From: Chloroflexota bacterium
Lineage (GTDB): Bacteria; Chloroflexota; UBA11872
Reading direction: 5' to 3'
Assembly (NCBI GenBank): GCA_965263175.1
Contig: OZ253587.1
Location: 2,889,032 to 2,953,031, forward strand
Length of the DNA: 64,000 bases
This document shows positions 2,840 through 38,673 of the stretch, piece by piece. The notes beneath the pieces were generated by a model. The model saw nothing but the letters and a program-made list of their open reading frames with translations. It did no database searches and was not told the DNA's origin. The position numbers and the translations under genes were made by a program. Numbering within the stretch: the first letter of the stretch is position 1; each line of letters begins with the position of its first letter.

Positions 2840-5791
2840 TCACGCGCCCGCCGGGGCTGGACTGCGTGAGGCGCGGCGCGGTGGCTTGCTCTTGGTCTGT
2901 CCGTTGCTGGAGGGGCGCGGGCGGCGGCTGTCGGGGTTGAGGACTCGCTGGAGGTATTGGCCGGTGTAGCTGGCGGGGTGGTCGGCGACGTCCTCGGGGG
3001 TGCCCTCGGCGATGAGTTCGCCGCCGGCGTCGCCGCCTTCGGGTCCCAGGTCGATCAGCCAGTCGGCGGACTTGATGACGTCGAGATTGTGTTCGATGAC
3101 GATGACGGTGTTGCCGGCGTCGGCGAGGCGCTGAAGGACCTGGATGAGCTTGCGGGTGTCGGCGAAGTGCAGGCCGGTGGTGGGTTCGTCGAGGATGTAG
3201 ACGGTCTTGCCGGTGGCGCGCTTGGAGAGTTCGGCGGCGAGCTTGATGCGCTGGGCTTCGCCGCCGGAGAGGGTGGTGGCGGGCTGGCCCAGGCGGATGT
3301 AGCCGAGGCCAACGTCGACCAAGGTGCCGAGCTTGCGCTCGATGGACGGGATGTTCTGGAAGAAGACGTGGGCGTCTTCGACGGTCATTGCCAGCACGTC
3401 GGCGATGGTTTTGCCCTTGTAAGTGATGTCGAGGGCTTCGCGGTTGTAGCGAGCGCCTTCGCAAACCTCGCAGGTGACGTAGACGTCGGGCAGGAATTGC
3501 ATCTCGATACGGTTCAGGCCCTGGCCCTCGCAGGCTTCGCAGCGGCCGCCCTTGACGTTGAAGGAGAAGCGGCCGGGTTTGTAGCCGCGAGCGCGGGACT
3601 CGGGGACGGCGGCAAAGAGGTCGCGGATTGGGGTGAAGGCGCTGGTGTAGGTGGCGGGGTTGGAGCGGGGGGTGCGGCCGATGGGGGACTGGTCGATCTC
3701 GATGGCTTTGTCGATGTGTTCCAGGCCGCGAATGCGGGAGTGCTCGCCCGGCACGTTGCGGCTGCCCCAGATGCGCTGGGCCAGGGCGCGGTAGAGCACG
3801 TCCTCGATGAGGGTGCTCTTGCCGGACCCGGACACGCCGGTGACGCAGATGAAGCAGCCGAGGGGGAACTGGACGTCGAGGGACTTGAGGTTGTTGGCGC
3901 GGACGCCTTCCAGCGTGAGCCGCGCACCGTTGCCGGTGCGGCGGGCGGGCGGCACGGGGATGCGCTCGCGTCCGGCCAGGTAGGCGCCGGTGAGGGAATG
4001 GGGGTGGCGTTCGATGTGATCCGGCGTGCCCTCGGCGACGACGTTGCCGCCGTGCTCGCCGGCACCGGGGCCGATGTCGATCACCCAGTCGGCGGAGCGG
4101 ATGGTTTCTTCATCGTGCTCAACCACCATGACGGTGTTACCCAGGTCACGCAGTCCTTTCAGGGTGCGGACCAGGCGGGCGTTGTCGCGCTGATGCAGCC
4201 CAATGCTGGGTTCGTCGAGGATGTACATAACGCCGACGAGACCGGAACCGATCTGGGTTGCCAGGCGGATGCGCTGGGCCTCGCCGCCGGAGAGGGTGCC
4301 GGCGGAGCGTTCCAAGGTGAGGTACTCGAGACCAACGGCCTCCAGGAAACCGAGGCGGGCGTTGATCTCCTTGAGGACCTGGACGGCGATGGTGGCGTCG
4401 CGCCTGCCGAGCTTGAGTCCGGCGAAAAATCCGGCGACGGCCTGGATGGTCATGGCCGTGGCGTCGTGAATGGAGCTGCCGCCGACGGTGACGGCCAGCG
4501 ATTCCGGGCGCAGCCGAGCGCCCAGACAGGTGGGGCACATGCGGCGGGTCATATAGCGCTCGATCTCGCCGCGGATGTAATCCGACTCAGTGTTCGCGTA
4601 GCGGCGGCGAAGGTTGGGGATCACGCCTTCGAACTCGAACTCGTAGGCGCGGCGGCGTCCGGCGGCGTTGGTGTACTGCACGACCAGCGGCTGGCCGGGC
4701 GCGCCGTAGAGCAGCACGTCCACGATGGCTGGGTCCAGCCGCTCGACCGGGGTGTTGGTGCGGAACCCGTACTTATGGGCCAGGGCCTCGATGACGTGCC
4801 GAGTGAGTGAGGTCTCGCGGGTGTGGGCCTTGACCCAGGGGACGATGGCGCCCTGGCCGATGGCGAGGGAGCGGTTGGGAATGATGAGGGCGGGGTCAAG
4901 CTCAAGCTTGGAGCCCAGGCCGTTGCAGTCCGTGCAGGCGCCGTGGGGCGTGTTGAAGGAGAAGAGGCGGGGTTCAAGGTTGGCCAGGCTGACGTGGCCG
5001 TTCTTGCAGGCCAGCCGCTCGCTGAGCGTCATTTCGTCGCCGTCGACGATCTGAATGGTGACGAAGCCTTCGCCCAGCTTGAGGGCGGTTTCCAACGAGT
5101 CGGCCAGCCGCATGCGCGAGTCGGCCTTGGCGGTGAGGCGGTCGACCACGATGTCGATGTCGTGCCAGAGGTTGCGGTCGAGGGCTGGCGCGTCGTCGAT
5201 GGACACGACCTGGCCGTCCACACGCACACGTACGAACCCGGCGCGCCGGGCGTCGTCGAACACGCCCTTGTGCTCGCCCTTGCGGTGGATGATCACGGGG
5301 GCCAGCACCAGGAAACGGGTGGCGTCGTCCCAATCCAGGATCAGGTCGACCATTTCCTGGATGGTCTGGGCCGAGAGCGGCTCGCCGCAGGTGTGGCAGT
5401 GGGGCTGCCCGATGCGCGCCCAGAGAAGGCGCATGTAGTCGTAGATCTCGGTGACGGTGCCCACGGTGGAGCGCGGATTGTGGGAGGTGGCTTTCTGGTC
5501 GATGGAGATGGCTGGCGACAGGCCCTCGATCTGGTCGACGTCCGGCTTTTCGAGCTGGCCCAGGAACTGCCTGGCGTAGGCCGACAGCGACTCGACGTAG
5601 CGCCGTTGGCCCTCGGCGTAGAGGGTGTCGAAGGCGAGACTGGACTTGCCGGAGCCGGAGATGCCCGAGAACACCACGAGCTTGTTGCGCGGGATCTCAA
5701 GGTCGATGTTCTTGAGATTGTGTTCCCGCGCGCCGCGAATGACGATGAAGGTGTCGACCATAACGTCCCAGCTTAAGCGATTTGCCGCCAT
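2840..5791 (-). CDS. uvrA: Excinuclease ABC subunit A (UvrA); an alternative start near 5761 is possible
   Basis: 983-aa ORF with duplicated ABC ATPase modules, Walker [10 protein letters not shown] and GVSGSGKST, and a zinc-finger CxxC insert. Colinear with UvrA throughout. Confidence 0.95.
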
Positions 5792-6027
5792 ATGTCTTCG
5801 CCCGCTTTTTCGACGGCTGTATCAGCCCGAAACGGAGCTTTCTGTCTCACACCCGTGAGACCCACCTTTGCATCTGTAGCCGCGTTGCGACCTCATCAAG
5901 GAAGGTGTGTACCACACCACTGACCAGTTGAAGCACTAAGGCGTCCCGACGAGAACCTGTGTCTCGTGAGGGCTTAGTGTGCTATTCTCGCCACCTCATT
6001 GAGCCTAGGCTGAGGTTAAAGGGACCG

Positions 6028-6243
6028 ATGGAGCTACTTCTTGGCGTCATTGTCCTCGGTGCTCTGTGCTATGGGGTTCTGCGTATAGCTGCAAAAGCAT
6101 GGACTGTGCATAAGGACAAGAAGATAGATCGGGAAATTGAACAAGAAATCCTTGCCGGAATGGAACCCATACATGGGACCAAAGTATGGGCAATGATCTC
6201 AATTGCAGGCGTCGATCGATTCTTCGGGGAATTATATGCTTGA
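6028..6243 (+). CDS. Small hypothetical membrane protein (lower-GC; possible IS1595 passenger)
   Basis: ORF starting MELLLGVIVLGALCYGVLRIAAKAW with one predicted TM helix. Local GC is clearly lower than the surroundings. Confidence 0.3.
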   Translation: MELLLGVIVLGALCYGVLRIAAKAWTVHKDKKIDREIEQEILAGMEPIHGTKVWAMISIAGVDRFFGELYA

Positions 6244-6281
6244 GTTGACACGGGTCGCCAAATCCGCTACTCTCTAACCAG

Positions 6282-7262
6282 TTGAGAGAGGGGATCGCAA
6301 TGGCAGCACCGGGGCGAGATCACCGAGAAGGCATCAGCCTGATCGAGCTAGCTGAGAAGTTTCCGAACGAAGACGCGGCCCGCGCATGGTTCGAGTCCAT
6401 CCTTTGGCCGGACGGTGTTCGCCGCTGCCCGACCTGCAACGGCGACAACACGCACGAGTGCTCCCACAAGACGATGCCGTACCGCTGCCGTGATTGCCGC
6501 AAGTACTTCTCAGTCAAAACGGGAACGCTTATGGCCGGTTCGCCGCTCCCGCTCCTCAAGTGGGTCTACGCGATCTACTTGGACACCACGTCGCTCAAGG
6601 GTGTATCGAGCATGAAGCTGCACCGCGACCTCAAGATCACGCAGAAGACCGCATGGCACATGCTGCAACGCATTCGGGAATCCTTCGCCGCGCAAGGCCC
6701 GACCGTCCTGTTTGAAGGTCCGGTTGAGGTTGACGAAACCTACGTCGGTGGCCGCCGCCGCAACATGGCGAAGTCCAAGCGAGCGCAGTTGCACGGTCGC
6801 GGCCCTATGGGGAAGACCGCTGTAGTGGGCGCGAAGGACCGCGCGACGGGTCAGGTCGTGGCTGAGGTCGTCCAGCGAACCGACGCGGCCACGCTCCAAA
6901 GCTTTGTCGCGGCGCACACGGCGGACGGCGCTGAGGTGTACACCGATGAGGCCCGCGCCTATCAGGGTCTCCCGAATCATTCGTCGGTTCGGCATTCGGT
7001 CGGTGAGTACGTCAACCAGCACATTCACACCAACAACGTCGAAAGCTTCTGGTCCATGCTCAAGCGGGCCCACAAGGGCACGTTCCACAAGATCAGCCCG
7101 AAGCACTTGGAGCGGTACGTCAACGAATTCGCGGGCCGCCAGAACATCCGCAGCCTCGATACCATCGATCAGATGGTGGCCGTGGCTGCCGGTTTTGCGG
7201 GGAAGCGGCTCAGCTACGCAGACCTGACGGCCCCGAACGGTCTGCCGTCCGGCTCGCGCTAA
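6282..7262 (+). CDS. IS1595-family transposase (zinc-ribbon N-terminus plus ISXO2-like DDE domain), copy 1
   Basis: CPTCNG...YRCRDCRKYFSVKTGT zinc ribbon. The DDE region (VEVDETYVGG ... YTDEARAYQGL ... HTNNVESFWSMLKR) is typical of IS1595. Confidence 0.85.
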   Translation: MREGIAMAAPGRDHREGISLIELAEKFPNEDAARAWFESILWPDGVRRCPTCNGDNTHECSHKTMPYRCRDCRKYFSVKTGTLMAGSPLPLLKWVYAIYLDTTSLKGVSSMKLHRDLKITQKTAWHMLQRIRESFAAQGPTVLFEGPVEVDETYVGGRRRNMAKSKRAQLHGRGPMGKTAVVGAKDRATGQVVAEVVQRTDAATLQSFVAAHTADGAEVYTDEARAYQGLPNHSSVRHSVGEYVNQHIHTNNVESFWSMLKRAHKGTFHKISPKHLERYVNEFAGRQNIRSLDTIDQMVAVAAGFAGKRLSYADLTAPNGLPSGSR

Positions 7263-7268
7263 ACCCCG

Positions 7269-7457
7269 ATGGTTGTCGGCGTCGAAGCCGAGGTCCGCCA
7301 CCAAATTGACCGACGGCTCGAAGCGAAGGGATGGATCCTCGACGCCTCACGCGACGATCGCGATGTCTACTTCGAGCGGGCCGTCACGGCCCGCCTCAGC
7401 ACCGTCCAGCGCCGCAATCTGGCGGATAAAGTCACCCGACTACACATTCTTCGCTGA
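7269..7457 (+). pseudogene. N-terminal HsdR_N segment of the RM fusion, left in a separate frame by a single-base frameshift near 7430
   Basis: Removing one G at 7431 (ataaaGtcaccc) joins ...RRNLADK to SPDYTFFADG, restoring a continuous HsdR_N domain. Confidence 0.5.
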
Positions 7458-9567
7458 CGGCGTGCCTGTCGCCGTCCTGGAAGCCAAGAAGCCGCAGGTG
7501 TCGGTCCAGACGGCCCTCGATCAGGGCCGCGACTATGCCGAGCGTCTCGGCGTGGACTTTGTCTTCGCCTGCAACGGCCCGACGTTCAAGTCGCTCCATG
7601 CCCCGAGCGAGCAACCGCTCTTTCTGAACAACGTCGAAGTCACCGAACCGTTGGCGCCGGTGCGATTGCGAACGTTTTGGACGGGCCGGACCAATGCCGT
7701 CCTCACCGTCCCGCACGACGTGATTGAGTCCCGGGCGCAATTGCTCGATATCTTCGAGCGATTGAATGGCGTGCTGCGGCACGCGGGGATCAGGGCCGGG
7801 CTCGAACGCTTTACCGAATTCGCCAACATCCTGTTTCTCAAGCTGGCGAGCGAAGCCGATCCCACTGACCAGACGTGGAACGAATTGCTCACGCGTCCGG
7901 ACGGCGATCTCCCGAGCTATCTGAATGACTTCGTGATTCCGCGTCTTCGCGACCGCTACGCCAGCGACGTCTTGACCAAAACCCACGTTGGCGGCTCGGC
8001 CCTCAAGGCCATCGTCCACGAACTCAATCCGCTGCACCTGACCGGCGTGGACGAAGACTTGAAGGGCCTCGCCTTTGAGCACTTCCTACGGCGGACCACG
8101 GCGGCCAACAACGATTTGGGCGAGTACTTCACGCCACGCGCCGTCGTGCGGTTCATGGTTCAGTTGCTCAATCCCGCGTTTGGGAAGACCGTGATTGACC
8201 CGTTCTGTGGAACGGGCGGCTTCCTGATCGAAGCGTTCCGGCACCTGGGGCAACAGGCGCCGCGTTCTGAAACCGCATCGCGCGTCCTGCATCACCAGTC
8301 GCTCTTTGGCCGGGAAATCACTACGACGGCCCGCGTCGCCAAGATGAACATGATCCTATTCGGCGATGGGCATTCGGGTGTGGTGCAAGGCGATAGCCTG
8401 CAACGGCTGCCAGACGACGAAGGGTGGTACGACTACGCGCTGTCCAATATCCCGTTTTCGCTTGAGATCGGGGATGACGCGATCCATGCGGTCGATCCCG
8501 ACGCCCGCGGATCGGATCAAGCCTGCCTCCTCCGGTGCTTCAAGAGCCTCAAGGCGGACGGCGCGATGGCCGTGGTGATTCCCGAGGGCTTGGCCGTCAA
8601 TCGGTCGCATCGCGATCTCTGGTTCCGGCTCTTTCGTGACGCGCGGGTTCGCGTGATTGCCACGTTGCCGCGTGGATCGTTCGCGCCGTACACCGAAGCC
8701 GGCACGAAGGTGCTATATCTCACTGACAAGGGCCGCGAACGGACCGACTGGTACTACCACGTCACGCTCAGCGGCGAGAAGGCGAAAGGCCCGTCCATTG
8801 ATATGGACGAATTCCTGTTCTTCTACCAAGCGACGCCCGAGCCGTTGGAGGCGCGGCCGGCCGGCGTTGAAGTGGTGCGCGTGCGCAATGGGAACAACCG
8901 CAACCAATTCTTTGTCGAGCGCCCGTGGAACATCGTTACGCCGAACGTCGTGCAGCTTGGTGAGGTGGCGGACATTGCGAACGGGCAGATGCTCACGGAG
9001 GCGGACGCCACCCCTGGCCGGTATCCGATTATCGGGGGGGGGCGCGAATGGTCGTTCACCCACGATGCGGCGAACACCGAGGGCGGCTGTTTCACCGTCA
9101 GCAAATCAGGGGCCTACGCGGGCTTTGTCTGGTGGCACGAAGCGCCGATATGGGCGTCCGATTGTCTGATCGTTCGCAGCCACGACGAAGACGAGTTCCT
9201 GACGTTTTACCTGTTCCTTTGCCTGAAAGCGAAGCAAGATGAGATTTATCGACGCCAGCAAGGGACCGGCCAGCCGCACATTTACCGCCAACACATTGCC
9301 GACTTCCCCATCCCGCGCGTCTCGCTGGCGGATCAGTGGGCGCAAATCAACGAAGCGAGAGACGTGATGCGCAACCGTATCGAGGCTGAAGAGCAAGAGA
9401 CCGGCGCGCTCACCGAGGCGCTCGACGGCATCGACCGGCTGTATCAGGCCGACGATACCGAGGCGTCGCGCCCGTCACCTCTTCGCGCCGACTACCAGGG
9501 CGCGTTGCCGGAGCAGGTAGCGAAGGCTCTACTCAGACACCGACCGGAAACCGAGCGGCGTGAGTGA
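7269..9567 (+). CDS. Single-chain restriction-modification protein (Type IIG/IIB-like): HsdR_N-type PD-(D/E)xK nuclease domain, gamma-class N6-adenine MTase, HsdS-like TRD. A +1 frameshift near 7430 interrupts the nuclease domain.
   Basis: Frame 7269-7457 encodes EAEVRHQIDRRLEAKGW (HsdR_N start). Frame 7273 continues with PDYTFFADGVPVAVLEAKKP (D...EAK nuclease motif). MTase motif I VIDPFCGTGGFL and motif IV NIPFS follow. The C-terminal HsdS-like TRD includes YPIIGGGREW...CLIVRS. Confidence 0.7.
9034..9042 (+). repeat. G9 homopolymeric tract inside the TRD-coding part of the RM fusion gene (encodes IIGGGRE)
   Basis: The sequence is atcgggggggggcgcg. This is a candidate slipped-strand phase-variation site. 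Confidence 0.6.
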
Positions 9568-25027: not shown

Positions 25028-25112
25028 TATGACTCCCTTACCGTGCGATGTGCTCTTGGCACTCGCCCGTCACACTCGCCCACCGTTGCCCCGTCCGTCT
25101 GAGGAATCCTTC

Positions 25113-26693
25113 ATGCAGATACTGTCGAAGGCCAAAGGCTCCACCGCAAGGGTGCTGATCGCCCTCCTGGTCGCGGTGGTCGGTGCGGTGGCGCTGGCCA
25201 CGCCGGCGTACGCGCAGTGGCCGAGCACCTGCGTGGACCTCAACGACATCGTCGAGCATCACCTCGGCAACGCCGGGAACGTGGGCATCTACCAGCGGGT
25301 GTTTGGCGGTCAGGCCGAACACCCGTGTCAGAACGATCATCGCGACGACGTACGAACGGTGTTCGCCTGGGCCTTCGGCGGCGAGTCGGCCGCAACCGCC
25401 GCGCCTACGCAGTGGCCGGCCACCTGCGTGGACCTCAACGACATCGTGGAGCGGCACCTCGGGAATACGCAGAACGTCGGCATCTACCAGCGCGCCTTCG
25501 ACGCGGGTCCCGGCGCTGAAGGCGCCTGTCAGAACGACCACCGCGCCGATGTGCGTGACCTGTTCACCTGGGCATTTGGCGGCGGGACACTCGGCGCCAG
25601 CGGCGCCAAGGCGCCACTGACGGTTGCAGAGCTGGTACGGCAAGCGCGGATTGCAGTCCGATACATCCTGGCAGCCGATGCCAGCGGCAGCGGCTTCGTT
25701 GTGACGGCGGACGGCTACGTGGTGACCAACAGCCATGTGCTGGACGGCGCCCGTCAGGCGACCGTTGGAACCCACGACGGCCAAGAGGATGTGGCGGCAG
25801 TGGTAGCGGACAACCCGGATCTCGATCTGGCGCTGCTCAAGCTAGCGGGCGCCAACCACCCATTTGTAAGCTTTGGCCGCTCCGCAGACTTGGCGGTGGG
25901 CGAGGACATCGTGATTCTGGGCTACCCGCTTGGCCTGAAGAGCCTCACCGCCACACGCGGTATCCTGTCCGCTCGTCACGCGGGCTGGCTGCAGACTGAT
26001 GCCACGGCAAACCCAGGCAACAGCGGCGGTCCAGGATTCAATCTGCACGGGGAAGTCATTGGGGTTGCAACCAGCAAGTTAGGCGGCGCACAACGAGTCG
26101 AGAACGTGAATCTCCTGATTGACGGGGATCTGGTTCAGGACACGGTTGACGCCTGGATTGCCAGCCACCGCGCGGGCACTCTCACACTGCCGGCGGTGGC
26201 ACCTGCGCCTTCGCCGCCGCCGGATTCCACGCCAGATCCGCCGGCTGAGAACCGTTGGAGACAAGAGACGCTTCGTGATGAAGTCACCGGAGAGGAACGT
26301 TTCATTGCGGTCGCTTTTGGAAGCGATGATTCTTACGTAGCTGTTCGCTGTTGGGAATCCGAAAATGACCTGGATGTCTATGTGTACTTTGGTCCGTATG
26401 TGTATCTGTCGTCGGATTGGAGATCGAATAGCGTCGACGTTCAGTGGCGCTGGAACGACGATGCGAACGTCAACTCAGGTCAATGGAGCGTATCCACGAG
26501 CAATAAAGCAGTGTTTCTTGCAGACTGGCAAATCAAAGAGTTTGCCTTTGGTCTTGTCCATGCGGGGCGTTTGGCATTTCGCGCCACAGATCGTTCGGGT
26601 GATCGCGAAGATGCGATCTTCGACTTTGTTGGCCAAGGGACACCAAATCACCCTGTAACAAATGTGATGAGTGCCTGCGGGGCGAAAATTTAG
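25113..26693 (+). CDS. Secreted trypsin-like (S1) serine protease with two N-terminal copies of an unrecognised ~55-aa two-Cys domain and a C-terminal beta-rich domain
   Basis: Signal peptide. 2x WPxTCVDLNDIVExHLGNxxNVGIYQRxF...CQNDHRxDVR. Catalytic triad context TNSHVL...DLALLKL...GNSGGP. Confidence 0.75.
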   Translation: MQILSKAKGSTARVLIALLVAVVGAVALATPAYAQWPSTCVDLNDIVEHHLGNAGNVGIYQRVFGGQAEHPCQNDHRDDVRTVFAWAFGGESAATAAPTQWPATCVDLNDIVERHLGNTQNVGIYQRAFDAGPGAEGACQNDHRADVRDLFTWAFGGGTLGASGAKAPLTVAELVRQARIAVRYILAADASGSGFVVTADGYVVTNSHVLDGARQATVGTHDGQEDVAAVVADNPDLDLALLKLAGANHPFVSFGRSADLAVGEDIVILGYPLGLKSLTATRGILSARHAGWLQTDATANPGNSGGPGFNLHGEVIGVATSKLGGAQRVENVNLLIDGDLVQDTVDAWIASHRAGTLTLPAVAPAPSPPPDSTPDPPAENRWRQETLRDEVTGEERFIAVAFGSDDSYVAVRCWESENDLDVYVYFGPYVYLSSDWRSNSVDVQWRWNDDANVNSGQWSVSTSNKAVFLADWQIKEFAFGLVHAGRLAFRATDRSGDREDAIFDFVGQGTPNHPVTNVMSACGAKI

Positions 26694-31954: not shown

Positions 31955-32401
31955 CTAGCTGAGCACGTAAGGCACAAGAGCTTCCTTAAGCTTCTGCGGC
32001 ACACTCATATTAGAGTAGCGGCCTTCGCCCGTCCAGATTGAGTTCTTCGGGGCGATATTGGCCTGGCGGGTGGCCTCAACGAGCCAGTCATGCGGCACAA
32101 AGTACCAGCGCTCCCGACGTTCATTGGCAGGGAACACCATGTAGAGATCGCGCTTTTTGTATTTCGAGTCAATAGTAAAGCGCGATTTGAGTTGTACCTG
32201 AAGGGCACGCTGCCGCAGAACGTGGTACGCAATAAAGTCAGCGGCATGCGCATCGTTGACCACGGGCAAGCATATATAGCCAAATCGAGCCAACAGTCCG
32301 GCAACGTGCTGGTAGTTGATCTGCTCCTTCTGAAAACTCGTCAGATCGCTGTACTCAACGGGCTGTAGTTCGAGCACAAGCCCGTTACTGATTACATTCA
32401 T
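31955..32401 (-). CDS. Hypothetical protein, possibly a degenerate PD-(D/E)xK fold (cargo of IS1595 copy 2)
   Basis: 148-aa ORF containing VVNDAHAADFIAYH...LQVQLKS. Low GC. Confidence 0.45.
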   Translation of the reverse strand: MNVISNGLVLELQPVEYSDLTSFQKEQINYQHVAGLLARFGYICLPVVNDAHAADFIAYHVLRQRALQVQLKSRFTIDSKYKKRDLYMVFPANERRERWYFVPHDWLVEATRQANIAPKNSIWTGEGRYSNMSVPQKLKEALVPYVLS

Positions 32402-32621
32402 TGTCGGTCCTTTGCTTTTCGCGCGGCCCTTGCGCGCCGCTCACCTCAGACCCTTTCAAATACTCCCACTCGTCACCATCCTTCGGCGGCGAAAACAATA
32501 ACGCCCTTGCGATATTCTCCGGTGTATCCGATATCTTCTCCGGCATCGGCTTTGCCGGTCGTCCGCGCTTACGTTTAGGCATTGAGAACATCTCCTTCAA
32601 GCATACGGGTCTCAATCCCAA
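32385..32621 (-). CDS. Small basic AT-hook-like DNA-binding protein
   Basis: MPKRKRGRPAKPMPEK N-terminus (RGRP AT-hook core). Confidence 0.45.
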   Translation of the reverse strand: MGLRPVCLKEMFSMPKRKRGRPAKPMPEKISDTPENIARALLFSPPKDGDEWEYLKGSEVSGAQGPREKQRTDNECNQ

Positions 32622-32889
32622 ATCGTAATTGAGCCTTGCGGCTATCTTGACGACTCAGTAAATTACGCAATGCCTTAACAACAGTTTCTTCGCGTATCGT
32701 ACTGCGTTCTTCACTGAGGTCATTGAATACAGTATTGCAAAATGGGCAACAACTAGGTAGTTCACGAGGATTGCACTCATCAGTGGATCGCATAGGAAAA
32801 ACAGCTTCACCACAACAAGATTTACAGTACAAATAAATGGTAGATAAATCTTCAAGGCCAATTATAATACGTTTCTGTACCGCAGCCAC
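32575..32889 (-). CDS. Small Cys-rich zinc-finger protein
   Basis: CKSCCGE ... CCPFCNT paired Cys clusters. Confidence 0.45.
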   Translation of the reverse strand: MAAVQKRIIIGLEDLSTIYLYCKSCCGEAVFPMRSTDECNPRELPSCCPFCNTVFNDLSEERSTIREETVVKALRNLLSRQDSRKAQLRFGIETRMLEGDVLNA

Positions 32890-33845
32890 TATGCCGCTCC
32901 CTTCAATTCTGTGTACGTGAGTTTCTTCCCCAGCATCCCGCGCACCATTGCCGTCATTTGGTCAATCGTATCAAGCTCGCGGTCATTGAACCGGCCCGCG
33001 AATTCTCCGACGTAGCGGTTCAAATGCTTGCCACTCATCTTGTGATACGAACCGTGAAAGCCGCGCTTCATCAGCGACCAAAACGATTCCAGTCCGTTTG
33101 TGTGCGCTTGTCCGTTGACCCACTGGCCGATACCGTGCCTGACGACTTCGCGGTTCGGCAGGCCATGATAGCCCCACCATTCGTCACTGTACACCTTCAC
33201 GCCCGGAATCGCGCTTAGCTCAACAATCCTGTGCAACGTCTTCTTCGTAATGTCTGGAACCACTGTGGCGTACACCTTGCCAGTCGTACGGTCACGAACG
33301 CCTGCGACTGGAATCTTGCCAACCTTGCCGCGTCCAGCCCGTAGTTTCTTGTTCGCATGCTTGTTGATTTCCTTGCCGCCGACGAACGTCTCATCGACTT
33401 CAATCGGTCCAACAAACGCCGGTTGCGCGTCTGTCCACGTCTCGCGAATCCGATGCGCCAAGTGCCATGCAGATTTCTGCGTAATCCCCAGGTCGCGATG
33501 GAGCTTCATGCTTGACGTGCCCTTGATACCCGTCGTCATCAAGTAGACCGACATCGCCCACACCTGATAGCCGAGCTTCGAGTCTTGCATCACGGTCCCC
33601 GTCCGCACGCTGAACCGCTTACGGCAGCCCTTCTCACGGCAACGGTACGGCATCGTCTTATGCTTCGCGCCGGATAGGGCGTTGACGCTCCCACAGTACG
33701 GGCAGGCTGGCTTATTCGGCCAGCGTGTCTCAGCAAACCACTTCTCAGCGGTCTTGTTGTCGGGGAACATCCGCATCACGTCAAGCAACGTGATCCCCTT
33801 GCGGTGCGCTTTCCCCGGTCCTTTTGCCATTTGCAAGTCTCCCAT
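32889..33845 (-). CDS. IS1595-family transposase, copy 2
   Basis: CPYCGS...YRCREKGCRKRFSVRTGT zinc ribbon, then IEVDETFVGG ... YSDEWWGYHGL ... HTNGLESFWSLMKR. Confidence 0.85.
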   Translation of the reverse strand: MGDLQMAKGPGKAHRKGITLLDVMRMFPDNKTAEKWFAETRWPNKPACPYCGSVNALSGAKHKTMPYRCREKGCRKRFSVRTGTVMQDSKLGYQVWAMSVYLMTTGIKGTSSMKLHRDLGITQKSAWHLAHRIRETWTDAQPAFVGPIEVDETFVGGKEINKHANKKLRAGRGKVGKIPVAGVRDRTTGKVYATVVPDITKKTLHRIVELSAIPGVKVYSDEWWGYHGLPNREVVRHGIGQWVNGQAHTNGLESFWSLMKRGFHGSYHKMSGKHLNRYVGEFAGRFNDRELDTIDQMTAMVRGMLGKKLTYTELKGAA

Positions 33846-33950
33846 TGCCTAATAAAGGAAGTATAGTGCCTATGGCGACGTTTGTCAAGGGGATCGAGCG
33901 CGGCAAGCCGTCCGGCCAGCGGCTTGCCGCATTTGGTACGCTCCAACATC

Positions 33951-34067
33951 GGCAGCGTGGCGAAACTGGTATACGCACGGTCTTGCCCTGCGGACTGACA
34001 CTTGTGAGTCTGCGGGGCAAGGCCGTGGCCTTCGGGTCTTGTGGGTTCGAGTCCCACCGCTGCTACC
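33951..34067 (+). ncRNA. tRNA-like element (~115 nt). The 3' half is canonical (UUCG-capped variable hairpin, T-arm GTGGGTTCGAGTCCCAC, 7-bp acceptor, discriminator A). The 5' half is aberrant or contains an insertion.
   Basis: 5' ggcagcg pairs with 3' cgctgct. The D-arm has a GG loop. The anticodon region does not fold into a 5-bp/7-nt arm. No CCA is encoded. Confidence 0.35.
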
Positions 34068-34124
34068 GGTTGACTGCGAGACATTGACCTTGCCATTGGT
34101 TAATGCCAGCCGGAATAGGGAGAT

Positions 34125-34490
34125 TTGATGGATTTGGCCGTAGGTGTATTCATATTTGCGGGTATGTTCCTAATCGCTGTTACTACCATAGTTGTAGCAA
34201 TAAGAGTTGATTTTGTTGAATTGCTTAAGTTTCGTCGTAAAAGACGTATTGAACGCGCACAACGAACATGTCCACATATTGATATGCGAATCGATGATAC
34301 GACAAACAACGTTGGTTATCAAAGCCTATTCATATCGCCCCCAGGAACGGTGTCATGGATATGCACACGATGCAACCTTGCCGTTCTATCGGAATTGGTT
34401 GTAAATCAAAATCAAGCATATTGGTTAGAGAATTGGCCAGAATGGCCTAAGCAAATGAAGAAATTTTCGAAACTTGTTGATAAGCTGTAG
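34125..34490 (+). CDS. Small membrane protein with a zinc-ribbon-like Cys pair (CPH...CTRC)
   Basis: N-terminal TM helix (LAVGVFIFAGMFLIAVTTIVVAI). Low GC. Confidence 0.4.
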   Translation: MMDLAVGVFIFAGMFLIAVTTIVVAIRVDFVELLKFRRKRRIERAQRTCPHIDMRIDDTTNNVGYQSLFISPPGTVSWICTRCNLAVLSELVVNQNQAYWLENWPEWPKQMKKFSKLVDKL

Positions 34491-34689
34491 TTGTCGCGAT
34501 TGTTCGCAATCGTCTAGTAGAATTTTGAATTGTTGAATTTCATCGAGTGTCATGTTCATGCGTCCTGTTGGCATTACCTGCCGCTGTGACCGGGCATCAT
34601 GGGCACTCACGTATGTAAGCTCCTTTCTAAAAAACTCTTTGGCTGCGGCGGGGTGTCGAAGCGCGGCTGTTGCCGGTCCGGGTATTTGG

Positions 34690-34965
34690 CCGGGGCTGGG
34701 TTGCTGAGGGCGCGATCCACCCTCACCCCAACCCTCTCCCTGGCAGAGACCTTTGCGTAACCCGAGGGACTGTTGCCCGGAAGACCCCTCACCCCAACCC
34801 TCTCCCTGGCAGAGACCTTTGCGTAACCCGGGGGACTGTTGCCCGGAAGACCCTCACCCCAACCCTCTCCCACAGGGAGAGGGAGCAAGAGCGGGCCGCA
34901 CCTTCGCGGACGAAGGGCGTTGTGCAAAGGTCCCTGGCAGGGAGAGGGAGCAAGAGGCGTGCCCG
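34690..34965. repeat. Cluster of three MITE/REP-like units
   Basis: Repeated ...ccctcaccccaaccctctccctggcagagacctttgcgtaaccc... units. Confidence 0.85.
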
Positions 34966-35336
34966 AGCACAGTCAATGACAACGGCTGAAGCTGGAGGGG
35001 CGACCTGTGGTGCGGACCGGGGCAGGTCCGTGCGAATAGGAGTATCTCCCTTAGGACCGCCAGGCCGCGGCGAGGGGGAGGCGGGACGTGCCCGCGGCAA
35101 GCTCAGGATGAAGCGGAAAGCAGCGGACAGGGACATTCCGAGTTCAGGTTGCGGAGACATGGGGTCTATTGTACACTGGATGTGCACGAACGGCAATCTG
35201 TCGGGCAGTGGCCAGTGGTCAGTGTCTAGTGGTCAGTGAAGGGGGAGCGTCGGCGCATGGTGGTCTGGTGGGTTGAGTCAGCGCGACGGGGAGCGTGGGG
35301 TGTGTAACGACCGACCGCAGCCGCGAGGCGGGTCGG

Positions 35337-35624
35337 TCAGGCGGCGTCGTTGCGACGGTCGCGGCCGGCGAAGAGGCCTTCGATGACGCCTTCGACGCGG
35401 GACATGCGCTCGGTTAGCGCCTGCACGTCCTTGCGCAGGTCCGCCAGGTCGGCGCGGACTTCCGACCGAAGGTCTTGGATGTCCCCGCGGACTTCGGCTC
35501 GCAAGGCCTGGCTATCGGCGCGCGCGTCGCGCCTAAAGGTGAGCATCAGGCCAATCATCGTCGCGCCCACGGCGAGGATTCCGATGAGTTCCGGCGTCAC
35601 GGTCGGCTCCCAGGTAGTGGTCAA
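35337..35624 (-). CDS. Small membrane-anchored coiled-coil protein, tandem paralog 1 of 4 (TTG start)
   Basis: N-terminal TM helix (LIGILAVGATMIGLMLTF), then 11-residue repeats LRAEVRxDxxD and a C-terminal MSRVEGxIxGLFAG. Confidence 0.6.
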   Translation of the reverse strand: MTTTWEPTVTPELIGILAVGATMIGLMLTFRRDARADSQALRAEVRGDIQDLRSEVRADLADLRKDVQALTERMSRVEGVIEGLFAGRDRRNDAA

Positions 35625-35740
35625 TGTCGTCGCCGCCCGTGTGGTCTAAACCCTAGCACGGGCAGCGGAACCGAACACTCCGCCTGCACGGCTGGGGTCG
35701 TCGGACTCAGCAGCGTCGCTCGCCGGCGGTGTTCGGTCAG

Positions 35741-36037
35741 TCAGGCGGCGTCGTTGCGACGGTCGCGTCCGGCGAAGAGGCCTTTGATGGCGCCTTCGAC
35801 GCGGGACATGCGTTCGGTCAGCGCCTGCACGTCCTTGCGCAGGTCCGCCAGGTCGGCGCGGACTTCCGCACGCAGGTTCTGGTTGTCGGCGCGAACTTCC
35901 GATCGGAATGAGTCCATGTCGGCACGCAACTCGGCTCGCAGGACGTTGCTATCGGCGCGCGCGTCGCGCCTGAAGGTGAGCATCAGGCCAATCATCGTCG
36001 CGCCCACGGCGAGGATTCCGATGAGTTCCGGCGTCAC
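35741..36037 (-). CDS. Small membrane-anchored coiled-coil protein, tandem paralog 2 of 4
   Basis: Same architecture as paralog 1. Preceded by the same ~115-nt structured leader. Confidence 0.6.
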   Translation of the reverse strand: MTPELIGILAVGATMIGLMLTFRRDARADSNVLRAELRADMDSFRSEVRADNQNLRAEVRADLADLRKDVQALTERMSRVEGAIKGLFAGRDRRNDAA

Positions 36038-36043
36038 GGTCGA

Positions 36044-36373
36044 TCAGGCAGCGTCGTCGTGGCGGTTGCCGGGGCTACGTCCTGCGAAGAGGCCTTTGAT
36101 GGCGCCTTCGACGCGGGACATGCGTTCGGTCAGCGCTTGGACGTCCTTGCGAAGAGCCGCCACGTCGCCGCGGACTTCCGCACGCAGGTTCTGGTTGTCG
36201 GCGCGAACTTCCGCTCGGAATGAATCCATGTCGGCGCGGAACTCGGCTCGCAGGACGTTGCTGTCGGCGCGGGCGTCGCGCCTGAACGTGAGCATCAGGC
36301 CAATCACGGTGGCGCCCACGGCGAGGATTCCGATGAGTTCCGGGGTCACGGTCGGCTCCCAGGTAGTGGTCAA
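36044..36373 (-). CDS. Small membrane-anchored coiled-coil protein, tandem paralog 3 of 4
   Basis: Same architecture. Separated from paralog 2 by only 6 bp. Confidence 0.6.
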   Translation of the reverse strand: MTTTWEPTVTPELIGILAVGATVIGLMLTFRRDARADSNVLRAEFRADMDSFRAEVRADNQNLRAEVRGDVAALRKDVQALTERMSRVEGAIKGLFAGRSPGNRHDDAA

Positions 36374-36489
36374 TGTCGTCGCCGCCCGTGTGGTCTAAAC
36401 CCTAGCAGGGGCAGCGGAACCGAACACTCCGCCGGCACGGCTGGGGTCGTCGGACTCAGCAGCGTCGCTCGCCGGCGGTGTTCGGTCGG

Positions 36490-36828
36490 TCAGGCGGCGT
36501 CGTTGCGGCGGTCGCGGCCGGCGAAGAGGCCTTCGATGGCGCCTTCGACGCGGGACATGCGTTCGGTCAGCGCCTGCACGTCCTTGCGCAGGTCCGCCAG
36601 GTCGGCGCGGACTTCCGCCAGATCAGCGCGGACTTCCTCCCGAAAGCTCTGCCGGTCAGCGTGGGCTTCCTCCCGGAAGCTCTGCCGGTCGGCTCGGACT
36701 TCCTCTCGCAGCGCTTGCGTGTCGGCGCGTGCGTCGCGCCACAGCGCCAGCAGCAGCCCAATTAGTGTGGCACCGACGCCAATCAATGTAGCGCCCACGG
36801 CGAGGATGGCGATGAGTTCCGGGGTCAC
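36490..36828 (-). CDS. Small membrane-anchored coiled-coil protein, tandem paralog 4 of 4
   Basis: Same architecture, with an extra repeat unit. Confidence 0.6.
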   Translation of the reverse strand: MTPELIAILAVGATLIGVGATLIGLLLALWRDARADTQALREEVRADRQSFREEAHADRQSFREEVRADLAEVRADLADLRKDVQALTERMSRVEGAIEGLFAGRDRRNDAA

Positions 36829-36984
36829 GGGGCAGCTCCGAGGTGTAGGTTTGCAGCGTCACGGCCCGCCCGTGGCAAATCCTAGCATGGGTGGCGGGCA
36901 TGAATGCGTCGCTTGTCCGAGGGCGCTGCTAGACTCCCCGCCGGCGCCTCTTGGGCGGAGTGGGCCTTGCGAAATCGTGGATTG

Positions 36985-38673
36985 ATGCGTTGCGTCCGTA
37001 TCGTTCTGTCGGTGCTCGTTGCGGCTGTTGCAACGTTTGGGCTGGCGACGCCGGTGCTGGCGCAGTGGCCGACGACCTGCGTTGATCTCAATGACATCGT
37101 TGAGGCGCATCTTGGCAATGATGGCAACGTAGGCATCTATCAGCGCGTCTTTGGCGACCAGGCTGAGCAGGCCTGTCAGAACGATCACCGGGACGACGTG
37201 CGCGGGGTGTTTGGCTGGGCCTTCGACCAAGTAGCGCAAACAACGGATTCGGAAACGCAGGATCTGGCCTGGCCGACCGATTGCGTGGAACTCAACGATA
37301 TTGTTGAGAATCACCTGGGCAACCACGGCAACGTGGGTATCTATCAGCGTACGTTTGGCGCGCAAGCCGAGACCGCCTGCCGGAACGATCATCGGGAGGA
37401 CGTGCGCGGGGTGTCCGGCTGGGCGTTTGGCGGCGCGACGACCAGCGCCGTCGGGCCGCAGCTGGCAATCAATGAGTTGGTCAAGCGATCACGGGCGGCC
37501 GTGCGGTACATCCGTACGTCAGACGAGCGATGTGGCAGCGCGTTCATCGTGACGGCGGACGGCTACGTGGTAACCAACAGCCACGTGCTGGATGGCGCGC
37601 CTCAGGTAGTGGTTGGAACGCACGACGGTCAGGAACAGCACGCGACGGTAGTAGCCGACGATCCCGAGGCCGACCTGGCGCTGCTCAAGCTGCCCGGCGG
37701 CGGACATCCCTTTCTACCGTTTGGAAGTTCAGCCAGACTGGAATTGGGCGAGGATTTGGTAATTCTTGGCTATCCGCTCTGCCTGGAAACCTTGACCGTG
37801 ACTCGCGGCGTGTTGTCCGCCCGCCATCCCGGCTGGCTCCAGACGGACGCCACGGCCAACCCGGGCAATAGCGGTGGACCGGCATTCAACGCACAGGGCG
37901 GCGTGATCGGCGTCGTAACAGTGAAGCTGGGCGGCGGCGCCGTAGATAGGGTGGAAAGCGCGAATTTTCTGCTTGATGGTGACGAAGCGCGGAGCACAGT
38001 TGATGACTGGATCATCCGCCATCGAACTAGAACCCTCCCTCAGCCCGCATCCCCGGCGCCTAGCCCGCCTACCCCAAGCGGTCCGCCTCCGTCGGAGGAT
38101 CCGGACTACATTCGTATCCTTGAGGTGGCTATTGCCCGAGGCGCACCGCAGACCCAAGCGGACGAAATAGCCGCCGACGTCATCTCGCGCGGCACTGTCA
38201 ACGCGTTCCTACATGGCGTTGATGACGGTGTGCAGTACGGGCGTTACGATTGCCGATGGCAAAGTAACCAATGCCCGCTGGCGCCGCCAAAGCCCCCAGA
38301 GCCGTCCGAGCTAATCAAGTCGGTCGGCATAGCCAGGGATTCGGACTGCACCACCGGAAGCGACGCGGGCGTAACGTGGCTAGGGGAACTTCCGGGTTAC
38401 CCTTTACCACAGATATTCTGTGTCGTATACGTCGTAGATAGATGGCCAGGCGGATGGACAGTCCACACCCGATGGGTTTTTCCAGGCAGAGATGAGCAGT
38501 CTACCGAGCCGTGGGTCTGGTGCGACTTCGACGGAGATTGGTGTCGCGGAGGATATATGAAGATTAGATGGCAAAATCCAAATCGATACTCGACGCCAGA
38601 AGCCGGCACGTTAGCCGTTACGCTTTACGTAAACGGCGCATACGTTCGGACTGACTCTTTCTGGATCACCTAG
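36985..38673 (+). CDS. Secreted trypsin-like (S1) serine protease, paralog of 25113..26693. It has two N-terminal copies of the same ~55-aa two-Cys domain and a C-terminal Cys/Trp-rich domain.
   Basis: Signal peptide (MRCVRIVLSVLVAAVATFGLATPVLAQ). 2x WPTxCVxLNDIVExHLGNxGNVGIYQRxFG...CxNDHRxDVRGV. TNSHVL...DLALLKL...GNSGGP. Confidence 0.75.
   Translation: MRCVRIVLSVLVAAVATFGLATPVLAQWPTTCVDLNDIVEAHLGNDGNVGIYQRVFGDQAEQACQNDHRDDVRGVFGWAFDQVAQTTDSETQDLAWPTDCVELNDIVENHLGNHGNVGIYQRTFGAQAETACRNDHREDVRGVSGWAFGGATTSAVGPQLAINELVKRSRAAVRYIRTSDERCGSAFIVTADGYVVTNSHVLDGAPQVVVGTHDGQEQHATVVADDPEADLALLKLPGGGHPFLPFGSSARLELGEDLVILGYPLCLETLTVTRGVLSARHPGWLQTDATANPGNSGGPAFNAQGGVIGVVTVKLGGGAVDRVESANFLLDGDEARSTVDDWIIRHRTRTLPQPASPAPSPPTPSGPPPSEDPDYIRILEVAIARGAPQTQADEIAADVISRGTVNAFLHGVDDGVQYGRYDCRWQSNQCPLAPPKPPEPSELIKSVGIARDSDCTTGSDAGVTWLGELPGYPLPQIFCVVYVVDRWPGGWTVHTRWVFPGRDEQSTEPWVWCDFDGDWCRGGYMKIRWQNPNRYSTPEAGTLAVTLYVNGAYVRTDSFWIT

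Follow-up and report, generated by a model that had tools for sequence, protein, structure and literature searches.

A conserved, previously unannotated gene cassette for small single-pass membrane coiled-coil proteins in Chloroflexota and a predicted leader that may mask its ribosome-binding site

A 64,000-nucleotide stretch from a Chloroflexota bacterium (GenBank assembly GCA_965263175.1, contig OZ253587.1, positions 2,889,032 to 2,953,031; hereafter the window, in whose coordinates all positions below are given unless a related locus is named) carries an array of four paralogous genes on its minus strand. These genes belong to a real, conserved, and previously unannotated cassette that encodes small single-pass membrane coiled-coil proteins and in which each gene or gene pair is preceded by a recurrent upstream unit. 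The best explanation of the cassette, offered tentatively, is that it encodes a holin-like or toxin-like membrane effector that is kept translationally quiet by its own leader, and a non-toxic scaffold at the membrane is nearly as likely.

All four open reading frames (ORFs) reported for the array by a first-pass annotation of this DNA are present on the minus strand, and the alignment of the four products, with a mean column identity of 76%, agrees with the earlier description of a paralogous array. Copy 4 (36490–36828, 112 aa) and copy 2 (35741–36037, 98 aa), both with GTG starts, keep the extents first assigned to them, whereas the starts of copies 1 and 3 have to be moved. In these two genes the longest ORF reaches a TTG (35624 and 36373, respectively), but a GTG located 24 nt downstream (35600 and 36349) encodes MTPELIG as in copies 2 and 4. 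Judged from sequence comparison, the GTG giving MTPELIG is most likely the true start in all four copies, since nearly all of 240 homologues start with MTPELIG, the public gene calls for the same genome are 87 aa (P0025) and 101 aa (P0266) long, and a GGAG is found 7–11 nt upstream of the GTG. Copy 1 then spans 35337–35600 (87 aa) and copy 3 spans 36044–36349 (101 aa), so that the products measure 87, 98, 101, and 112 aa instead of the 95–112 aa given before. The start correction also lengthens the two intergenic units from the approximately 115 bp originally described to 140 nt, while their near-identity stands, with 3 differences in 146 aligned positions. Copy 2 lacks both a promoter and a leader. 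Its GTG follows the copy 3 stop at a distance of 6 nt, as noted in the first reading, and the gene is probably translationally coupled to copy 3. At the DNA level, a 312-bp period spans copies 2 and 3, and tandem units of 33 bp and 21 bp occur inside copy 4.

The 240 homologues share a three-part build consisting of an N-terminal transmembrane (TM) helix, a variable number of 7- or 11-residue repeats, and a conserved C-terminus. The N-terminal tail is formed by the four residues MTPE and is acidic. It is followed by the TM helix LI(G/A)ILAVGAT(V/L)IGLLL and a basic patch, RRDAR. The repeats are of the type x-x-L-R-x-E-V-R-A-D-x, their number varying between copies, and the proteins end in DLRKDVQALTERxSR(V/L)EG(V/A)IEGLFAGRDRxNDAA. 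Homologue lengths range from 76 to about 250 aa (maximum 253), most of them falling between 76 and 168 aa, and change in steps of 4, 7, and 11 residues. Because of these stepped lengths and of the 33-bp and 21-bp tandem repeats in the DNA of copy 4, length changes are attributed to the gain and loss of repeats. Hydrophobic residues recur with a period of 3.65 across the repeats, as for a hendecad (11/3), and of 3.5 over the last 30 residues, as for a heptad; together with the 33-bp DNA units, the former bears out the 11-residue repeats that had been read from the translations. AlphaFold2 models the protein as one continuous helix from residue 3 to residue 97, with a mean predicted local distance difference test score of 85.7 and no head domain.

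Lysine and arginine residues are absent ahead of the TM helix in 134 of 134 proteins, and the 15 residues that follow it contain a mean of 3.8 and a minimum of 2. As basic residues occur only after the helix, the positive-inside rule predicts from sequence an N-out/C-in topology with the coiled-coil stalk in the cytoplasm. The tail past the helix is highly charged, with a charged fraction of 0.30–0.49 (mean 0.40). Small residues at positions 7, 10, 14, 17, and 21 line one face of the TM helix, a stripe that may serve as an oligomerisation surface, and the proteins probably form parallel oligomers. The first 20 residues are kept at the protein level while their codons vary synonymously. Among these codons, that of Glu4 is GAA in 115 family genes and GAG in 12, in a lineage of about 67% GC (in copy 4 it occupies 36817–36819), and Gly7 is often encoded by GGA; this bias may mean that the nucleotide sequence itself is constrained around the start. 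In copy 4, residues 11–24 contain a 7-residue duplication, VGATLIG, within the TM helix, giving a hydrophobic stretch of about 27 residues, and the same duplication recurs in homologues P0042, P0054, P0068, P0072, P0097, and P0104.

The proteins had been described as fitting no known family, and no curated model matched them above its cut-off. The window proteins, 36 family members, and distant relatives were scanned against Pfam, NCBIfam, PHROGs, and PADLOC without an above-threshold match; the matches obtained were below threshold and driven by the repeats (Apolipoprotein, CCDC90-like, DUF6779, DUF1664, PspB, Rz-like spanin, and phrog_9415). PADLOC-DB 2.0 yielded no profile match for a window protein, whereas neighbouring Type IIG restriction-modification (RM), SIR2, and HerA genes do match. 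Rfam 15 covariance models gave no hit at E ≤ 1 in 34000–38000 and none at gathering score in the whole window. Searched against 1.84 billion cluster representatives, a family profile produced 2,304 matches at E ≤ 1e-3, and 855 unnamed proteins were retrieved with one distant family member. The family is thus large, with hundreds to thousands of members, and entirely unnamed, its members always being annotated as hypothetical.

Upstream of the genes, 102 of 110 distinct Chloroflexota regions contain the same elements in the same order, namely box 1, (C)CCGTG, overlapping an extended -10-like box, TGCTAnnnT; box 2, GGGCGG; a variable stretch of 25–38 nt; the Shine-Dalgarno (SD) sequence GGAG; box 3; and the start codon. 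Box 2 is invariant in 101 of 102 leaders. Box 3 abuts the start codon and reads CCGCCC in 65 leaders, is G.U-compatible in 25, and is mismatched in 12. The predicted 5′ untranslated region (UTR) of the family measures 45–55 nt, with GGGCGG proximal to its 5′ end. In 94 of 111 genes, a sense-strand TGnTAnnnT precedes the start codon by 51–70 nt. A combined -10/box 2 motif has 99 matches in 908 kb (the window and the related loci), and because all of them precede a family gene or pseudogene, the leader is taken to belong to the gene cassette and not to be a motif shared by a regulon. The promoter proposal rests solely on the conserved TGnTAnnnT box; a scan with consensus sigma-70 and terminator models returned nothing at the arrays.

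In the window, the extended -10-like box upstream of copy 4 (TGCTAGGAT) lies at 36879–36887 on the minus strand, and the 5′ UTR of this gene (36830–36871) contains box 2 at 36866–36871, the SD sequence GGAG at 36836–36839, and box 3, CTGCCC, at 36830–36835; the diverged unit that had been noticed ahead of copy 4 therefore carries the same boxes. In the unit that precedes copies 3 and 2, box 1 (GCTGCCCCTG) overlaps the extended -10 box TGCTAGGGT at 36399–36416, and the 5′ UTR of copy 3 (36350–36387) contains box 2 at 36382–36387, the SD sequence GGGAG at 36356–36360, and box 3, CCGACC, at 36350–36355. The unit of copy 1 (35650–35667) is arranged in the same way, with box 1 (CGCTGCCCGTG, 35657–35667) overlapping TGCTAGGGT (35650–35658) and a 5′ UTR at 35601–35638 that contains box 2 (35633–35638), the SD sequence GGGAG (35607–35611), and box 3, CCGACC (35601–35606).

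The pairing of box 2 with box 3 appears in the minimum free energy (MFE) structure of 102 of 102 leaders and is the sole consensus helix returned by RNAalifold. For copies 1 and 3, the predicted leader fold has a dG of -16.1 kcal/mol (z -2.5). In a fold of the full intergenic RNA, which a read-through transcript would include, box 2 is engaged by box 1 and the ribosome-binding site stays accessible. The leader RNA structure is therefore predicted, by folding models, to be thermodynamically plausible and conserved. What the first-pass annotation called a conserved structured leader holds as a conserved unit, found in about 100 paralogues and orthologues, while its RNA structure is a prediction to which covariation adds nothing.

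Two inverted repeats had also been seen in the intergenic units, and both are present. One is an 11-nt pair (35631–35641 and 35657–35667). The other, ACCGAACAC and GTGTTCGGT, is long-range (35670–35678 with 35729–35737, and 36419–36427 with 36478–36486) and had been taken for part of the conserved leader. Its sequence is not kept across the family, other members carrying different sequence at that position, and the hairpin belongs to the upstream gene, where it looks like a terminator lacking a U-tract or a stabiliser. The terminator-like long-range hairpin immediately after the copy 4 stop (36419–36486, minus strand) has a dG of -38.8 kcal/mol (z -3.2) and no U-tract, and the one immediately after the copy 2 stop (ACCGAACACCGCC ... 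GGCGGaGTGTTCGGT, 35670–35737, minus strand) has a dG of -32.5 kcal/mol (z -0.8). After the copy 1 stop, a further terminator-like hairpin (35309–35338, minus strand) has a dG of -24 kcal/mol (z -2.0).

A scan of one genome per species yielded 73 loci, and all 73 (L006–L078, with the N-terminus TPELI[GA]ILA) lie in metagenome-assembled genomes (MAGs) of at least four phyla. In Chloroflexota, the genes form same-strand arrays of 2–6 copies at several dispersed sites, amounting to 8–15 family copies per complete chromosome. The spacers of 53 adjacent gene pairs in related loci are mostly 119–152 nt long, with a few of -4 to 8 nt. Because tandem arrays are the rule in related Chloroflexota MAGs, including complete long-read chromosomes, the window array is not regarded as an assembly artefact, a possibility that had been raised at the outset.

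All-against-all clustering of ORFs in 78 loci identified at least three chromosomal sites that are conserved between species, and no universal neighbour gene. Site A, that of the window, lies between an aconitase gene and an ATP-binding cassette (ABC) transporter operon; site B lies upstream of genes for NfeD and an SPFH/Band 7 protein; and site C lies upstream of the Lhr helicase gene. Variable cargo accompanies the arrays at each site: IS1595 and low-GC DNA at site A in the window, a Type IIG RM enzyme and a pentapeptide-repeat protein at site B, and SIR2-HerA, MazE, and transposases at site C. In locus L001, a SIR2-HerA pair and a MazE-like antitoxin (5099–9066) lie directly upstream of a two-gene family array, and in L085 a transposase and an RM gene adjoin a family gene. 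Several copies resemble pseudogenes with an intact leader, having ATC instead of a start codon (L018, ~5562–5640; L025, ~106–190) or a frameshift just past the start (L010, ~2334–2420), and look like a sign of turnover. Side observations at these sites concern the surrounding DNA. The low-GC patch of the window (32000–35000, 50–57% versus about 67%) contains an IS1595-family transposase gene (32889–33845) and an orphan 121-aa ORF, and lies between the array and the ABC-transporter operon; in L043, L046, and L049 this operon comes straight after the array. A 66-bp tandem unit (34719–34950) is part of a dispersed repeat of about 130–150 bp that resembles a repetitive extragenic palindromic element or miniature inverted-repeat transposable element, with at least 10 copies in the window, others lying near 1353, 1784, 16209, 16445, 17383, 17501, 19938, 43812, 55881, and 55978. 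Most of the related Chloroflexota loci have it as well, and in L035, L045, L010, and L015 it is inserted between family genes.

A near-identical N-terminus, (M/V/L)TPELIAILAVGVALAGL, occurs in MAGs of Alphaproteobacteria, Gammaproteobacteria, Acidobacteriota, and Dehalococcoidia; in these cross-phylum relatives the repeats differ and the C-termini are related. Genomic contexts vary across this wider family. A Type IIG enzyme adjoins a family gene in four alphaproteobacterial and four Chloroflexota loci (among them L011, 2266–5817; L017, 1693–5130; L045, 1413–4838; L063, 8674–12039; L067, 7595–10924; and L077, 8201–11560). Across about 1,100 aa, the Chloroflexota enzymes share 65–72% identity with the alphaproteobacterial ones, which indicates that the neighbourhood was recently exchanged by horizontal transfer. 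The alphaproteobacterial leaders (L063, L067, L068, L071, L073, L077; about 50 nt upstream of 6001) have a conserved sequence in common, CGCTTGA ... GCAGAGTC, and are unrelated in sequence to those of Chloroflexota; their 5′ CUUCC/UCCGCG pairs with the SD sequence in the MFE structure, with a z-score that is not significant. The isolate labels of the 73 loci (RHO, COS, SB0662, Langseth, jk18, and Sanger universally unique identifiers), taken alone, suggest an origin in marine sponge microbiomes. A paper citing SB0662 bins deals with sponge Poribacteria.

The closest known architecture is that of the LysF1b holin-like proteins of mycobacteriophages, which constitute the DUF2746 family (PMC13056207, PMC9339283), the likeness being one of build that HMMER membership does not bear out. 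LysF1b proteins, with named examples in actinobacteriophages such as Girr gp35, NBJ gp33, and Waterfoul gp32 (PMC13056207, PMC9339283), are 92–150 aa long and have one N-terminal transmembrane domain (TMD), a predicted N-out/C-in topology, basic residues past the TMD, and a tail that is 30–50% charged; they are toxic and are needed for efficient lysis (PMC13056207). The cassette family shares with them the single N-terminal TMD, the predicted topology, the basic residues after the TMD, the charge of the tail, and an overlapping size range, and by this analogy it might work like LysF1b. One homologue, P0016 (MYD92286.1), is labelled DUF2746 domain-containing by NCBI and is the only pointer to the corresponding model, PF10874. 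In contrast to LysF1b, the family has no relatives in the phage genomes and IMG/VR contigs searched and lies outside any lysis cassette among chromosomal neighbours. Its proteins have regular hendecad repeats and a C-terminal EGxIxGLFAG, and its genes are chromosomal, occurring in 8–15 copies per genome in tandem arrays with promoters of their own.

The effector explanation would have the family spread as a self-contained cassette of promoter, 5′ UTR, and gene. The window would contain three transcription units, namely copy 4, copy 3 with the coupled copy 2, and copy 1, each running from an extended -10 box to a GC-rich hairpin. Transcripts from the proximal promoter would begin a few bases ahead of GGGCGG, placing box 2 at the extreme 5′ end of the mRNA, where it would pair with the CCGCCC between the SD sequence and the start codon and so damp translation. 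On transcripts reading through from the upstream copy, box 1 would instead pair with GGGCGG and the ribosome-binding site would be freed. The product would act like a holin, as an effector that perturbs the membrane, belongs to the variable, defence-rich share of the genome, and stays silent until some trigger. This explanation is preferred because of the LysF1b-type architecture, because the predicted masking next to the SD sequence is typical for mRNAs of toxic small membrane proteins, because the family turns over rapidly (pseudogenes and variation in copy number and repeat number), and because it has spread horizontally and lies in islands rich in defence and mobile genes. In its most specific form, it would describe a stand-alone, horizontally shared, partner-less holin-like or abortive-infection effector of apparently sponge-symbiont bacteria, set by the 5′ end of the transcript (masked when proximal, unmasked on read-through) and with a stalk diversified by 21-bp and 33-bp repeats; that the whole of this combination is correct appears improbable.

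Several observations weigh against a translationally silenced effector. On the protein side, a HMMER search at E up to 10 did not match the four window proteins to PF10874, and this model is also missing from the families listed for 36 aligned members. Relatives of the family are absent from 50,697 phage genomes searched by tblastn and from an IMG/VR scan, and neither an endolysin nor an antitoxin is a conserved neighbour of the family genes. The 8–15 copies lie at species-conserved sites upstream of housekeeping operons, and with such stable sites and strongly conserved termini a stable cellular function fits at least as well as a toxin. On the regulatory side, a TGnTAnnnT scan of 111 gene regions found no conserved antisense promoter, with only 4 antisense motifs of this promoter type. 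Shuffled sequences fold as well as the copy 4 leader does (z +0.4), RNAalifold gives a covariation term of 0 with no compensatory pairs, and next to the box 2:box 3 helix the flanking positions show no more pairing than permuted controls. Since the paired bases are nearly invariant, the covariation result speaks neither for nor against an RNA helix. In addition, the box 1/box 2 repeat flanking the -10 box could equally well be a DNA operator.

A non-toxic scaffold or envelope-stress protein is doubtful too, though nearly as likely as the effector. In this alternative, the proteins would be membrane-anchored cytoplasmic stalks like PspB, YhcB/ZapG, ATP synthase b, or DUF1640/MCUR1 that recruit or space partners at the inner membrane face, with length variants tuning the spacing or mixing oligomers. 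The hendecad stalk, with an 11-residue unit of the form h-x-x-L-R-x-E-h-x-x-D, resembles that of DUF1640/CCDC90-like proteins (MCUR1, PF07798). This model matches 23 of 36 members weakly (best E 4.6e-5), at 15–21 bits, and the window proteins at 14.7–18.2 bits, all below its gathering threshold of 33.5 bits. The best solved-structure match, PDB 6h9l (E 0.0023, repeat region only), is an uncharacterised protein of ALRKATKEDIE hendecads that presumably comes from work on the DUF1640/MCUR1 family. The anchor, however, is N-terminal in the cassette family and C-terminal in the DUF1640-like matches of the representative search, and DUF1640 family proteins carry a head domain in a head-neck-stalk arrangement, whereas the model of the cassette protein has none. 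PspB (PF06667), a protein of about 75 aa, likewise features an N-terminal TM helix, an N-out/C-in topology, and a cytoplasmic leucine-zipper-like helix, but lacks a repeat stalk and is single-copy. Its matches are weak and below the cut-off (6 of 36 members, best E 1.2e-4; TIGR02976 at E 0.15), and no PspA- or PspC-type domain was found among the annotated neighbours of the family genes. ATP synthase b and ZapG match near E 0.1. A scaffold would also agree with the species-conserved sites, one of them just upstream of NfeD and SPFH/Band 7, with the strong conservation of both termini, and with the high copy number, which is more easily tolerated for a harmless protein. Against it, none of these profile matches reaches its curated cut-off and all reflect repeat composition, the loci have no conserved partner gene in common, and patchy cross-phylum spread, pseudogenes, and defence or mobile neighbours would be unusual for a housekeeping scaffold.

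A second alternative, held with the same doubt, concerns regulation only and is compatible with any function of the protein. It proposes that (C)CCGTG ... CACGGG(CGG) around the -10 box is the operator of a dedicated repressor, that the RNA hairpin is incidental to GC richness, and that CCGCCC is conserved for another reason. Boxes 1 and 2 do lie at a fixed distance around the -10 box, with box 2 beginning 10–11 nt past it in 81 of 96 leaders and 6–7 nt past it in the other 15. Their complementarity extends over 6.8 of 9 positions versus 3.9 in controls, and the paired bases are invariant and free of compensatory changes. However, no regulator gene accompanies the arrays consistently, several box 1/box 2 and box 2/box 3 matches use G.U pairs that would be workable only in the sense RNA, and the unrelated alphaproteobacterial leaders also pair their 5′ end with the SD sequence in the non-significant folds described above.

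That the cassettes form a type I toxin-antitoxin array, in which small membrane toxins would be made from mRNAs silenced by 5′ structure and antisense RNA, is very unlikely. A repeated small membrane gene with a structured leader predicted to mask the SD sequence does recall tandem type I modules such as the long direct repeats ldr/rdl of E. coli, and the many copies per genome would suit this proposal as well. The cassette proteins are much longer, however: known type I toxins usually have fewer than 60 aa, whereas the family members have 76–253 aa with a conserved soluble domain. The scarcity of antisense extended -10 motifs and the absence of an Rfam match also count against it.

Slightly less likely still is that the proteins are exported C-out coiled coils, spanin-like or exposed at the surface or in the periplasm, and act as substrates or partners of the secreted S1 protease encoded next to the array. 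The array is divergent to this gene (36985–38673, plus strand), as stated in the first-pass annotation; its product has an N-terminal signal-like segment and a trypsin-like S1 core of the HtrA type, detected as a Trypsin_2 domain (E 3.7e-33). Surface proteins often vary in repeat number, and an N-terminal TM helix followed by a coiled coil is also the build of Rz-type i-spanins and of the phage Mu releasin gp25 (DUF2730), with weak Rz-like spanin matches in PHROGs (E 7e-5 or weaker) and Pfam. I-spanins, however, are N-in/C-out, have an o-spanin partner, and are encoded in a lysis cassette. The cassette family shows none of these features, no o-spanin or other lysis gene having been found among the annotated neighbours, and the spanin resemblance proposed earlier is disfavoured by the opposite predicted topology. 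The distribution of basic residues around the TM helix, uniform in all 134 proteins, argues against export, as do the lack of a positively charged n-region and of a lipobox, and an exported coiled coil of diderm relatives would end up in the periplasm, not at the surface. The protease adjoins the array in 3 of 8 loci at the window site (the window, L007, and L049), is missing from the other 5, and occurs at no other site; on this distribution it was rejected as a family-wide partner. With the stalk predicted to be cytoplasmic, the suggestion that the protease processes these proteins is likewise unsupported. As to the protease itself, a paralogue is encoded about 10 kb away (25029–26693), and two N-terminal repeats of about 55 aa (WPTxCVxLNDIVExHLGNxGNVGIYQRxFG...) precede its Trypsin_2 domain.

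The family is among the most duplicated small genes of these Chloroflexota genomes and travels with its own promoter and leader. Were its products effectors that act on membranes, the defence or toxin repertoire of symbiont genomes would gain a partner-less type; as scaffolds, they would represent an abundant, overlooked component of the cytoplasmic face of the membrane. In either case, the cassette offers a clean case for the predicted 5′-end-dependent masking of a ribosome-binding site.

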